The notes under the pieces are model-generated. The model saw nothing but the letters and a program-made list of their open reading frames with translations, was not told the origin of the DNA and did no database searches. A DNA stretch of 64,000 nt from a virus (Duplodnaviria; Caudoviricetes): IMG/VR virus record IMGVR_UViG_3300029705_000041; one strand, 5' to 3'. This document shows, piece by piece, positions 34,218-37,251 of the stretch; position 1 is the stretch's first letter; each line of letters opens with the position of its first letter. Made by a program: the position numbers and the translations under genes.

Positions 34218-34803
34218 AAAATCTATATCGGCTGGTATAATGATTGGGATAGGTGCAACAGTCTATCTACTTTGTGAAAACAAAATTATTGCAGCATTCT
34301 TATTTGCTACCGGATTATTTGCAATTTGCACATTTGAAATGAATTTATTTACCGGAAAAATCGCTTACATATTTGAAAACAAAAATTCTCCAAATTGTTT
34401 TGTTATTTGGATAGGAAATTTAATAGGTTGCTTTTTGACTGCTTTTCCAATAAGATTAGCAATACCAGAAATAACACAAAAAGCATATTTATTAGTAGAA
34501 TATAAATTACATAATGATTTGTTATCAACCATATTTTTATCTATTTTCTGTGGCGTATTAATGTATTTAGCCGTTGAGAATTATAAAACTAACAAAAATG
34601 AATTTGCTAAAATTGTAGGCTTATTTTTAAATGTAGTGGTATTTATTATATGTGGTTTTGAACACAGTATTGCAAATATGTGTTATTGTATTTTTTCTGT
34701 GAATAGCTACAATATGATGATACATTCTCTAATATTCATCTTAATCGTATCTTTTGCAAATAGTGTTGGCGCAATTCTATGTCGCAATCTTACAAAAAAC
34801 TAA
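34204..34803 (+). CDS. formate/nitrite transporter (FNT) family channel
   Basis: AGIMIG, LFTG, GNLIG, GFEHSIANM; about 6 TM segments. Confidence 0.85.
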   Translation: MKNIKKSISAGIMIGIGATVYLLCENKIIAAFLFATGLFAICTFEMNLFTGKIAYIFENKNSPNCFVIWIGNLIGCFLTAFPIRLAIPEITQKAYLLVEYKLHNDLLSTIFLSIFCGVLMYLAVENYKTNKNEFAKIVGLFLNVVVFIICGFEHSIANMCYCIFSVNSYNMMIHSLIFILIVSFANSVGAILCRNLTKN

Positions 34804-34821
34804 TGTAAAAGAGGTAATAAG

Positions 34822-34965
34822 ATGGTTAATGGAAAAAAAGTATCAACGTGCGAAAAAAAATTTACAGTAAAAAACATACACCCTACATTTGCCACAGAAC
34901 AAGAAAAAAATAAACAAGAAAAAAATATAAAAATTCAATTATATGACATATTTAAAAAATATTAA
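34822..34965 (+). CDS. small protein (47 aa) upstream of the integrase, candidate recombination directionality factor
   Basis: GAGG SD; MVNGKK...QLYDIFKKY; below the ORF-track size cutoff. Confidence 0.45.
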   Translation: MVNGKKVSTCEKKFTVKNIHPTFATEQEKNKQEKNIKIQLYDIFKKY

Positions 34966-34966
34966 T

Positions 34967-35023
34967 AAATAAGACAGAAAAATTCGGTAAAGTATTGAAA
35001 AAAGAGGGTTGCTGTGGTATAAT
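34967..35023 (+). promoter_or_regulatory. integrase promoter with upstream 16-bp motif
   Basis: Motif 34967-34982; TTGAAA 34995-35000, 17-bp spacer, TG-G-TATAAT with -10 at 35018-35023. Confidence 0.75.
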
Positions 35024-35028
35024 AATAC

Positions 35029-35062
35029 TATTAGCGACCTTCTTTCTATTTTAGAAAGGAGG
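35029..35062 (+). promoter_or_regulatory. integrase 5' UTR: SD-sequestering hairpin and left arm of an 18-bp inverted repeat
   Basis: CCTTCTTTCTA (35038-48) pairs with TAGAAAGGAGG (35052-62); 35029-35046 is the exact reverse complement of 36628-36645. Confidence 0.75.
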
Positions 35063-35068
35063 AACACA

Positions 35069-36574
35069 ATGGATGCAATATATGGTAGACAGTCTATAGA
35101 CAAGAAAGACAGTATTAGTATTGAATCGCAAATTGAATTTTGTAAATATGAAACAAGAGGGAGGGAATACCGAGTCTACACGGATAAGGGCTATAGTGGT
35201 AAAAACACGGATAGACCTCAATTCCAAGAGTTATTGCAAGACATTAAAAATGGTGAAATTCATAGAGTAATTGTTTACAAATTAGACCGTATAAGCCGTT
35301 CAATATTAGACTTTGCAAGTATGATGCAAATATTTGAGCAGTACGGAGTCGAGTTTGTTTCGTCCACCGAAAAATTTGATACCTCAACTCCAATGGGTAG
35401 AGCAATGTTAAATATATGTGTGGTATTCGCACAGTTGGAAAGAGAAACAATCCAAAAGCGTGTTCTTGACTCTTATAATGCACGAAAGAAAAAAGGTTTT
35501 TATATGGGCGGCAAAATTCCATATGGTTTTTCAAAAGAAAAAATTGTAATCAATGGCATTAGAACATCTAAGTATATAATCAATCCGGAAGAAATGGAAC
35601 AGGTAATTACTATATATGAAATGTATTCTAATCCAACAACTTCTATGAGAGATATAATTGGTTATTTTAATGAAAATGGAATAAAGCAACTACGTGGCGG
35701 AAAATGGAGAGCTACAAATTTATTATCTCTTGTTAAAAACCCAATATATGTTCAAGCTGATTTAGATATATACGAATTTTTCAAAAGTCAAGGTGTTGAA
35801 ATTATTAATCCACCTTCAGAGTTCATTGGAACAAATGGCTGTTATCTATATAAAGGTGAAAATGCCGAAGCGGATAAATCTGTTAGATTAGAAGGACATA
35901 CATTAGTATTAGCTCCGCATGGCGGCACAATACCATCTGAAACATGGTTAAAGGTTCGGAGAAAATGTTTGAATGACAATAAAATATTGAAACCAAACAA
36001 AGCTAAAAACACATGGCTATCCGGAAAGCTGAAATGCAAAAAATGTGGATATGCGATACTATCAAGAGGTTCTACTAAAGGAGAAAAGTTTAGATACTTG
36101 TTCTGCCAATTCAGCAAAAATGATAATGGTTGTGAAGGCATACATTGTATGAAAACAAGCGACATGGAAGATGCAATTCTCAATGAGATAAAAGAAAAGT
36201 TGAGTAATTTTAAAACTCTTTCAAGAGAACAAAGTGCAGCCATTAATCCTAAAATCAATGAATTAAGAATCAAAGAAAAAGACATTGATAATGAAATAGA
36301 ATCATTGATGGAAAAGCTGGTAGATGCAAATGACACTTTATTAAAATATATTAATAAAAGAATTGTGGAACTGGACAATGCGAAAAAACAAATTCTATCT
36401 GACTTAAATACTCTAACACTATCACAGAACAATATAACAAATAGCAAAACCATTGTAGACCATGTTGACAAATGGGATAAACTTTCTTTTGACGATAAAA
36501 GAAGCGTAGTGGATGCTTTGATAGATAAGATAATGGTTAGTGATGAAAGTGTGGAGATAAATTGGAAGATATAG
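35069..36574 (+). CDS. large serine recombinase (integrase)
   Basis: IYGRQS catalytic Ser, DKGYSG, RPQFQ, KLDRISR, recombinase domain, CKKC...C...C zinc ribbon, coiled coil. Confidence 0.95.
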   Translation: MDAIYGRQSIDKKDSISIESQIEFCKYETRGREYRVYTDKGYSGKNTDRPQFQELLQDIKNGEIHRVIVYKLDRISRSILDFASMMQIFEQYGVEFVSSTEKFDTSTPMGRAMLNICVVFAQLERETIQKRVLDSYNARKKKGFYMGGKIPYGFSKEKIVINGIRTSKYIINPEEMEQVITIYEMYSNPTTSMRDIIGYFNENGIKQLRGGKWRATNLLSLVKNPIYVQADLDIYEFFKSQGVEIINPPSEFIGTNGCYLYKGENAEADKSVRLEGHTLVLAPHGGTIPSETWLKVRRKCLNDNKILKPNKAKNTWLSGKLKCKKCGYAILSRGSTKGEKFRYLFCQFSKNDNGCEGIHCMKTSDMEDAILNEIKEKLSNFKTLSREQSAAINPKINELRIKEKDIDNEIESLMEKLVDANDTLLKYINKRIVELDNAKKQILSDLNTLTLSQNNITNSKTIVDHVDKWDKLSFDDKRSVVDALIDKIMVSDESVEINWKI

Positions 36575-36575
36575 T

Positions 36576-36625
36576 TTGTGGCACATTGACTACATCGTTC
36601 AATCATTATAGTCAATGTACCATAA
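36576..36625. other. candidate attP site
   Basis: 50-bp imperfect palindrome TTGTGGCACATTGACTA-16nt-TAGTCAATGTACCATAA (15/17 match) starting just after the integrase stop. Confidence 0.7.
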
Positions 36626-36627
36626 GC

Positions 36628-36645
36628 GAAAGAAGGTCGCTAATA
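36628..36645 (+). repeat. right arm of the 18-bp perfect inverted repeat
   Basis: GAAAGAAGGTCGCTAATA is the reverse complement of 35029-35046. Confidence 0.9.
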
Positions 36646-36725
36646 AGCCATTTGGCAAGGCTTTTATATACTTATTTTAATTTATAAATTGACTATTTTG
36701 TAGCTTAAAATAAATATATAAACGC

Positions 36726-36770
36726 AAAAAATTAAGGTTATAAGCTTTTAAACTTATAACCTCATTTTTT
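36726..36770. terminator. bidirectional intrinsic terminator between the convergent arms
   Basis: AGGTTATAAG/CTTATAACCT 10-bp stem flanked by A and T tracts. Confidence 0.75.
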
Positions 36771-36798
36771 ATATTAACAACAATAACGAACAATATAA

Positions 36799-37251
36799 TT
36801 ACTTATTTTTTTCTTTAAATTTTAAAATTGTATGTCCAAACAATTTATAGTAAGGAACCGGCAGAATTTCAAACACATAATAATTAATTGCATCAGCAAT
36901 GAATATTCCTAATATAGAAATAATTATCCAAATTAAACTAAACGGCAAGCATATAATTCCATTAAAATTTAAAGGGACATTTGTATAATCCCACATTAAT
37001 TCAAAATTATAAACTAAACATATACTTCCGATAATTAATTCAAATAATGTTGCAATAATAGAACCAATACATCCTTGTAAAAGAATATCTGTATTCCAGG
37101 AAATTTTTTCATTAATGCAGTCTATCATTAATAAAATAATTCCGCCACATAATCCCATAAGAGGATAAGAATAGCCTCTATAACAAACTTCAATAGTGAT
37201 ATAAATACAAAAACCAACAATAAATAATACTAATTGTCTTAAATATTTCAT
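36799..37251 (-). CDS. multi-pass membrane protein (putative ABC-transporter type IV-like family)
   Basis: About 4 TM segments; WDYTNVPLNFNGIICLPFS motif. Confidence 0.7.
   Translation of the reverse strand: MKYLRQLVLFIVGFCIYITIEVCYRGYSYPLMGLCGGIILLMIDCINEKISWNTDILLQGCIGSIIATLFELIIGSICLVYNFELMWDYTNVPLNFNGIICLPFSLIWIIISILGIFIADAINYYVFEILPVPYYKLFGHTILKFKEKNK

Follow-up and report, generated by a model that had tools for sequence, protein, structure and literature searches.

A predicted integration-state-dependent RNA switch at the serine integrase gene of an uncultured gut phage

The integrase gene, its leader and its attachment site

We analysed a stretch of viral DNA of 64,000 nucleotides (64 kilobases (kb); hereafter the window), which is part of the 94-kb IMG/VR viral contig IMGVR_UViG_3300029705_000041 (estimated completeness ~61%). 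Our subject is the large serine integrase gene of this phage (int; + strand, 35069 to 36574) together with two short complementary elements that flank it, B at the start of the predicted int mRNA and D just past the phage attachment site (attP). The 501-amino acid (aa) product matches the Pfam families Resolvase (PF00239, 1.2e-37), Recombinase (PF07508, 1e-12) and Zn_ribbon_recom (PF13408, 1.1e-6), all above the cut-offs, and so possesses the resolvase, recombinase and zinc ribbon domains that mark the large serine integrases of phages. int is the last gene on the + strand, the direction of the genes switching from the + strand (up to 36574) to the - strand (from 36799). As phage genes are found on either side of int, the window represents the non-integrated, attP form. 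It also contains genes for NrdD, NrdG, a dUTPase and SLH-domain endolysins, as well as tail-fibre genes, and among cultured phages no integrase more than 33% identical to that of the window was found. The phage is a large, temperate, uncultured gut phage of the Clostridia type.

The start of the int transcript is placed at ~35029-35030 on the basis of its strong promoter, P_int (+ strand, 34995 to 35023), which matches 11 of 12 positions and comprises a -35 box TTGAAA, a 17-nucleotide (nt) spacer and an extended -10 element, TG-n-TATAAT. Element B (TATTAGCGACCTTCTTTC; + strand, 35029 to 35046) begins 6 nt after the -10 hexamer and makes up the first 18 nt of the predicted mRNA. It consists of a 9-nt toehold followed by 9 nt of the arm that pairs with the Shine-Dalgarno (SD) sequence, hereafter the anti-SD arm. 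This arm belongs to an SD-sequestering hairpin, B:C (+ strand, 35038 to 35062), in which 35038-35048 pairs with 35052-35062 across a 3-nt loop to give 11 base pairs (bp), one of them G-U. The SD sequence itself (AAAGGAGG; 35055 to 35062) is buried within the hairpin, which is the minimum-energy fold of the leader at -12 to -13.1 kcal/mol (z = -2.8 for the 72-nt leader).

Element D (+ strand, 36628 to 36645) is the perfect reverse complement of B and is situated in the int 3' untranslated region (UTR), 3 nt past the P' arm of attP. B and D are the sole two copies of this repeat in the window at up to 3 mismatches; none of 100 shuffles reached two matches, and the remainder of the 94-kb record holds one more match, with 3 mismatches. 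D is not part of any strong local hairpin. Between the int stop codon and 36645 there is no terminator-like site, and the only one after int is a bidirectional intrinsic terminator (36733 to 36764) that closes both the int transcript and the convergent lysis/structural operon. With a terminator absent before D and present after it, D falls within the transcription unit. A previous, sequence-only reading of this DNA had put forward a TATAAT-box promoter before int, an 11-bp stem with one G-U pair burying the SD, perfect 18-nt complementarity between 35029-35046 and 36628-36645, and a terminator stem after D. All four were recovered here, and its coordinates were accurate save for one offset, the start codon being 35069.

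attP is an imperfect 50-bp palindrome (36576 to 36625) with arms at 36576-36592 and 36609-36625 that are 17 nt long, 88% complementary and 16 nt apart. The attR contig L046, which carries an integrated copy with an identical integrase, matches the window exactly as far as 36601, where host DNA takes over. Two attL contigs, L197 (a 349-kb bacterial contig) and L205, were found via the first gene on the far side of attP, and both consist of host DNA followed by window sequence from 36602. As the junction contigs break at 36600-36602, the crossover is placed at ~36600-36601 (CA), the centre of the palindrome. attL and attR together therefore define a ~50-bp palindromic attP with a central crossover. 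The sequence-only reading had suspected an attP-like palindrome at 36576-36625, and the crossover indeed lies inside it and not outside 36575-36627. Because the crossover is inside the palindrome, integration detaches D from int and puts it at the far end of the prophage. Neither attR contig, L046 or L207, has D downstream of int, and at attL it is retained in L197 and L205, where it stands intact right after the P' arm. The expectation that integration would separate the 3' element from int is thus confirmed by L046, in which the prophage-form int transcript lacks the 18-mer.

Several further observations were made at these junctions. The CA crossover dinucleotide fits L046 and L197; the attL of L205 (3130 to 3200) has CT instead of CA, and its flanking DNA is unlike that of L197. 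The L205 junction may represent a secondary integration site or some other rearrangement. In L046 (5507 to 5600), the host attachment site (attB) lies ~80 nt upstream of a host GH13 alpha-amylase gene, beyond which a sigma factor gene and his genes follow, and no terminator occurs after int; the amylase gene has probably been cut off from its own promoter and is co-transcribed from P_int. When the empty attB was sought via the host alpha-amylase, the lysogen contig alone was returned, and no lysogen of this phage lineage was present among the genome-contig matches listed, all of which came from a group with ~53%-identical integrases. The host side of attL in L197 (3655 to 3720) carries GACAGCTCCCTTTACACAAGGGAGCC, an SD-sequestering hairpin in the style of the integrase leader, with a GTG just before the crossover, and the phage in L197 may have inserted at the start of a similarly regulated gene. 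Finally, in L059 (80 to 600), downstream of int in the L003 provirus record, at least two tandem units of ~185 bp follow an attR-like site. Each unit ends in GTGGCACATTGACTACATCGTCCA, which resembles the left arm of the window attP, and a run of N interrupts the copies; the units could be a tandemly integrated mini-element or an assembly artefact.

Folding and conservation of the B:D pairing

The B:D duplex is predicted to be considerably more stable than the leader hairpin (-27.5 versus -12 to -13 kcal/mol). In a partition-function model of the full attP-form mRNA of the window (35029 to 36770), the B:D pairs have probabilities of 0.87-1.0, the hairpin forms with a probability of ~0.01 and the SD is unpaired with a probability of 0.53. 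The natural prophage-form transcript of L046 gave corresponding values of 0.99 for the hairpin and 0.00 for an unpaired SD. When D was reversed within the window transcript as a control, the hairpin was closed and the SD was again 0.00 unpaired. For a related lineage, the attP-form transcript of L206 had an SD 0.66 unpaired and the integrated-form transcript of L207 an SD 0.27 unpaired. Co-folding of the 5' and 3' UTRs, which had been suggested as a check, hence gave the anticipated outcome: in these models, the SD opens only with the 3' element present.

Conservation of D was assessed in three lineages that carry it in the attP form, namely the window, L049 and L206 (with L208 and L209), whose integrases are ~66-70% identical. 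In all three, a distance of 57-58 nt separates the stop codon from the D core, which closely follows the P' arm and precedes the terminator, and B:D complementarity sets in at the predicted transcript start, 6-8 nt past the -10 hexamer. L049 has a 70% identical integrase and different attP arms; its B is unchanged and its D forms 16 Watson-Crick pairs and one G-U pair. The third lineage (L206, L208 and L209), reached via cluster members, has a 66% identical integrase and its own attP. Here both arms have changed (B, TGTTAGCAACCTTCTTTTCT; D, AGAAAAGAAGGTCGCTAACG), and over 20 nt they form 18 Watson-Crick pairs and one G-U pair, with one A-C mismatch. Two changes between lineages are compensated in both arms, an A-U pair having become G-C and an extra U in B being matched by an extra A in D. 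Two others are one-sided A-to-G changes in D opposite U, which keep a wobble pair on the + strand. When the five lineage changes were scored against each reading, four were found to fit + strand RNA pairing, three - strand RNA pairing and two the upkeep of identical copies.

Nucleotide identity between the lineages is 68-71% in the int coding sequence, 63-75% in attP, 0-25% in the linker from attP to D and 17% in the sequence after D (L206), and it reaches 82-94% in the D core. The core holds a 14-nt invariant run that is tied for the longest in the whole 1.65-kb alignment. In L207, an integrated relative of the third lineage, D is absent downstream of int. A coding origin of this conservation was ruled out, as a 41-aa open reading frame (ORF) at 36562-36687 is not conserved in frame between lineages; since the indels differ from one lineage to another, D lies in no conserved ORF. 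Inside the window-type lineage, the invariance of D lacks significance, there being only 8 variable columns in 226 overall.

B is 100% identical in L003, L039 and L049, with Int proteins 70-76% identical. L039 contains an integrase/attP/D cassette identical to that of the window (34990 to 36690) in an L049-type backbone, which differs from the window's in having a KTI12-like kinase upstream and an Amidase_2 lysin downstream. The exchange junctions are near the promoter and ~40 nt past D. Judging from these arrangements, the large phages of this group appear to shuffle int cassettes among backbones.

Among 43 loci, complementarity between the leader and the 3' flank was detected in the window, L039 and L049 only, the others being mostly integrated. 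Pattern scans of viral contigs for the predicted D partners of variant leaders yielded only chance matches in coding DNA, as did a scan of metagenome contigs for D plus its context, and a second viral-contig scan for L003-type integrases returned no attP-form copy. D is restricted to the phage lineages closest to the window and is not general to the family.

A leader shared by related integrases

The leader hairpin, by comparison, is found far more widely. We gathered 58 distinct sequences from upstream of related integrases (46-76% identical) in viral, genome and metagenome contigs, and in almost all of them the layout of -35 box, 17-nt spacer, TATAAT and SD-pairing hairpin is kept. In 54 of the 56 distinct related leaders, the minimum-energy fold has the SD core paired. 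The sequences of the stem vary by group, with ACCTTCTTTCTA/TAGAAAGGAGG in the window, GCTCCGTTTCTT/GAAAAGGAGC in the commonest group and AGCTCCT/AGGAGC in another.

The promoter spacer holds an additional element, A (+ strand, 35001 to 35014), which the sequence-only reading had overlooked. A is an SD-like arm complementary to B that pairs with the start of the leader, anti-SD included, and it occurs only in transcripts that read through from upstream. In the window, the A:B duplex has a predicted stability of -19.9 to -20.4 kcal/mol and contains 3-4 G-U pairs. The A:B and B:C helices share one arm, and covariation was assessed by alignment-free tests. Between groups, cognate A:B pairs had a mean of -19.0 kcal/mol versus -11.0 kcal/mol for non-cognate pairs (permutation p < 1e-4). 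Where A:B is imperfect, the pairs concerned are nearly always G-U when read on the + strand; in each of 21 representatives, + strand RNA gives a more stable helix than the complement does (mean difference, -7.2 kcal/mol). Furthermore, the spacing between the A and B arms differs from group to group. Taken with the variable spacing, this strand asymmetry favours an RNA structure over a protein operator on double-stranded DNA. The read-through RNA of the window folds into A:B (z = -3.7) followed by UAUUUU, suggesting that A:B may terminate upstream transcripts or may free the SD in those that continue.

An Rfam search of 34700-37000 identified no family, the single match (PsrR1, E = 1.3) being at chance level, and in literature searches the leader element was not found described. 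On the strength of these sequence comparisons, we take the leader to be a conserved RNA-level element that forms part of an RNA structure. It looks like an undescribed RNA motif (34985 to 35071; loci L003-L139, L193 and L194) with the -10 box in a helix loop, and it is possibly a terminator overlapping a promoter. By itself, the A:B:C leader is already spread through hundreds of Clostridia elements.

Directly 5' of int is a 47-aa ORF (+ strand, 34822 to 34965) that is conserved in close lineages. All group-A lineages have such an ORF of 47-48 aa before int, at 38-53% identity and with a C-terminal LYxVFKxY kept, and that of the window contains a perfect 15-nt tandem duplication (34898 to 34927). 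Neither a Pfam nor a PHROG assignment was obtained for it; it is a candidate accessory protein, regulator or recombination directionality factor. Elsewhere in related phages, the NrdD gene of L051 (1 to 992) was seen to contain an intein carrying an HNH endonuclease, and L041 has a free-standing HNH gene between nrdD and nrdG.

A proposed integration-state switch and its alternatives

The reading that we favour is an RNA-level translational switch on the integrase that depends on integration state, and we regard its chances as about even. The elements, the crossover and their conservation are computed, and from these we infer the transcript ends, the pairing in the cell and the raised translation. 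Under this model, transcripts from P_int would start at ~35029-35030, and the B:C hairpin would bury the SD and keep translation off by default. With attP intact, after infection or excision, the transcript would run through attP to the terminator stem at 36735-36762 and so contain D. D would pair with the single-stranded 5' toehold and invade the anti-SD arm, and the resulting 18-bp duplex between the 5' and 3' UTRs would free the SD, allowing Int to be made. Integration would cut attP at 36600-36601 and move D by ~150 kb to the attL end; the prophage int mRNA would then read into host DNA and its hairpin would stay closed. Element A, present only in read-through from the upstream operon, would pair with the same B sequence. 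It could either terminate upstream transcripts or open the SD, for example at induction, when excision needs Int. A switch of this kind had been proposed by the sequence-only reading, and every prediction of it that was checked computationally (crossover, loss of D, terminator, compensation and SD folding) held. What it had not anticipated was that the leader hairpin is family-wide, that A is present and that D is confined to certain lineages.

A number of points weigh against this switch. D is known from three lineages only, and the covariation amounts to five changes, one of which, a G-to-A change in B opposite C, is uncompensated and disrupts the pairing. As int cassettes are exchanged, part of the conservation of D could reflect recent exchange. 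When five genomes that carry the widespread group of ~53%-identical integrases were searched for their leader's reverse complement, only the leaders turned up. Complementarity in homologous loci, an earlier proposed check, is kept in two further attP-form lineages, with compensatory changes, and lacking in these five genomes. No D-like partner was found at 40 other loci either, although most of these are integrated and say little about their attP forms; together with the ~53% group, they indicate that the leader works without D in most relatives. The folding results come from equilibrium models, in which co-transcriptional kinetics and translating ribosomes are ignored. Finally, the OFF state of the prophage must still permit Int to be made for excision, and this would call for the unproven A route or for leaky translation.

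The proposed switch has clear relatives among known systems. In phage lambda, sib (mentioned in PMC5300877 and PMC6379469) is a local 3' hairpin that is cut by RNase III and lowers Int. Like sib, D is a cis element past attP in the int 3' region, which is linked to the gene only while attP is intact and is removed by integration, and in both cases int expression would depend on integration state. Unlike sib, D lacks a strong local hairpin and has its partner in the 5' leader, at a distance of 1.6 kb. In silico, this pairing leaves the SD free, from which higher translation is predicted, and the recombinase concerned is a serine enzyme where that of lambda is a tyrosine one. With sib, the expression of int is already tied to an intact attP, and the concept is less new than the sequence-only reading had supposed.

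Long-range pairing of a 3' UTR with the leader of the same mRNA, as predicted for the window, controls translation or stability in Firmicutes, in icaR of S. aureus (PMC3868564) and hbs of B. subtilis (PMC5737220). In S. aureus icaR the 3' UTR pairs with the SD itself and represses (PMC3868564), whereas D is complementary to the anti-SD arm and should activate. A further difference from both icaR and hbs is that a recombination site between the partners would make the pairing conditional. With the anti-antisense activation of rpoS by DsrA or RprA, and with synthetic toehold switches, the locus shares an SD-hiding leader hairpin that would be opened through strand displacement by an RNA matching the toehold and the anti-SD arm; that this activator outcompetes the hairpin is seen here by thermodynamic modelling only. 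The activators DsrA and RprA are separate small RNAs and often Hfq-dependent, whereas here the activator would be the 3' UTR of the same mRNA, acting in cis. Integration state can also be sensed by the junction promoters of circular Tn4451 or insertion sequence intermediates. Another such sensor is the integration-dependent immunity of mycobacteriophages (PMC3694055, PMC4557955). In these systems too, recombination at att or at the element ends rewires the expression of the element's own recombinase or repressor, but it does so by changing a protein C-terminus or assembling a promoter, and here promoter and protein stay as they are and only the 3' UTR would differ. The switch is read as a new variation on retroregulation and 5'-3' UTR pairing.

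The B:D pairing might instead act mainly on the fate of the RNA, either as an RNase III site, in the manner of the negative retroregulation by sib, or as a protective end-to-end clamp, and the level of int mRNA would then differ between the attP and prophage states. We consider this unlikely. The duplex is indeed perfect and of a length near the size of an RNase III substrate, a 3' element past attP is the layout of lambda sib, and documented precedents for the control of stability or RNase III cleavage by 5'-3' UTR pairing exist in icaR (PMC3868564) and hbs (PMC5737220). A purely negative role, however, would not require the anti-SD arm to be targeted; because D covers 9 nt of that arm, pairing necessarily frees the SD. 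Cleavage inside the duplex would, moreover, take away the anti-SD arm as well.

An action of the repeats as DNA, whereby a repressor, a directionality factor or Int binds the same motif at the promoter and beside attP, had been raised as an alternative by the sequence-only reading and seems to us quite improbable. Such a shared protein site would couple int transcription with recombination, and it would also make the two copies co-vary. The positions are compatible with this, as B overlaps promoter positions +1 to +18, the -10 hexamer lies between A and B, which are inverted repeats of each other, and D touches the P' arm of attP. Yet three of the five lineage changes make the copies unequal, whereas four of the five keep + strand RNA pairing, and the leaders carry the same signature: A:B mismatches that are almost all + strand G-U, a more stable + strand helix in all 21 and an arm spacing that varies between groups. 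The motif also has no further copy in the window and only the one 3-mismatch match elsewhere in the 94-kb record. Large serine integrases, furthermore, need only ~50-bp att sites, and their directionality factors bind the protein.

D could also be imagined to act in trans in lysogens, a host promoter at attL giving rise to a short D-containing RNA that ends at the 36735-36762 terminator. This RNA would open the int leader, thereby tying Int translation and excision competence to host transcription. In both attL contigs, L197 and L205, D has remained intact. The host genes next to it in L197 are oriented towards D, that strand showing no terminator-like site, and in L046 the position of attB, ~80 nt upstream of the alpha-amylase gene, means that a displaced host promoter would face attL. 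The proposal is nevertheless purely inferential, and, given that the contigs differ in integration site, host input is not likely to be conserved; we hold the proposal to be highly improbable.

It is scarcely credible that the repeat has no function of its own, whether as what is left of a duplication or an exchange of cassettes or as inverted repeats by which the int-attP cassette would be inverted or transposed: the cassette does move between backbones with junctions near B and D (L039), and variation in the window-type lineage is too low for significance, but D is kept in non-coding DNA across lineages ~30% diverged with its changes compensated, and neither the 501-aa recombinase, a large integrase and not a Hin-type invertase, nor the single orientation of ~20 independent attP-form contigs fits a Hin/Gin-type invertible segment. 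The repeats were also ruled out as transposon termini, since homology between backbones extends past both repeat ends and these are therefore not sharp.

The integration-state switch may be one case of a general, hitherto undescribed riboregulatory logic for the integrases of phages and mobile elements, in which the anti-SD element B is read by partners that report state; we offer this wider view tentatively and with some doubt. A, positioned after the upstream small gene, would report read-through from a lytic or excision operon, and D, just past attP, would report an unrecombined attachment site. Translation of Int would in this way be confined to times when recombination is called for.

The regulation of serine integrases is assumed to rest mostly on their directionality factors. 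Should the switch operate as modelled, it would constitute a self-limiting circuit written only in RNA, in which recombination itself turns the integrase off. Serine integrases would thereby have a counterpart of lambda sib that acts positively and over a long range, and synthetic biology would gain a compact natural part that reports recombination state. The conserved leader appears as an undescribed RNA element before a very widespread clade of gut Clostridia integrases, and the switch built upon it would provide a new way for a virus to sense whether it is integrated.

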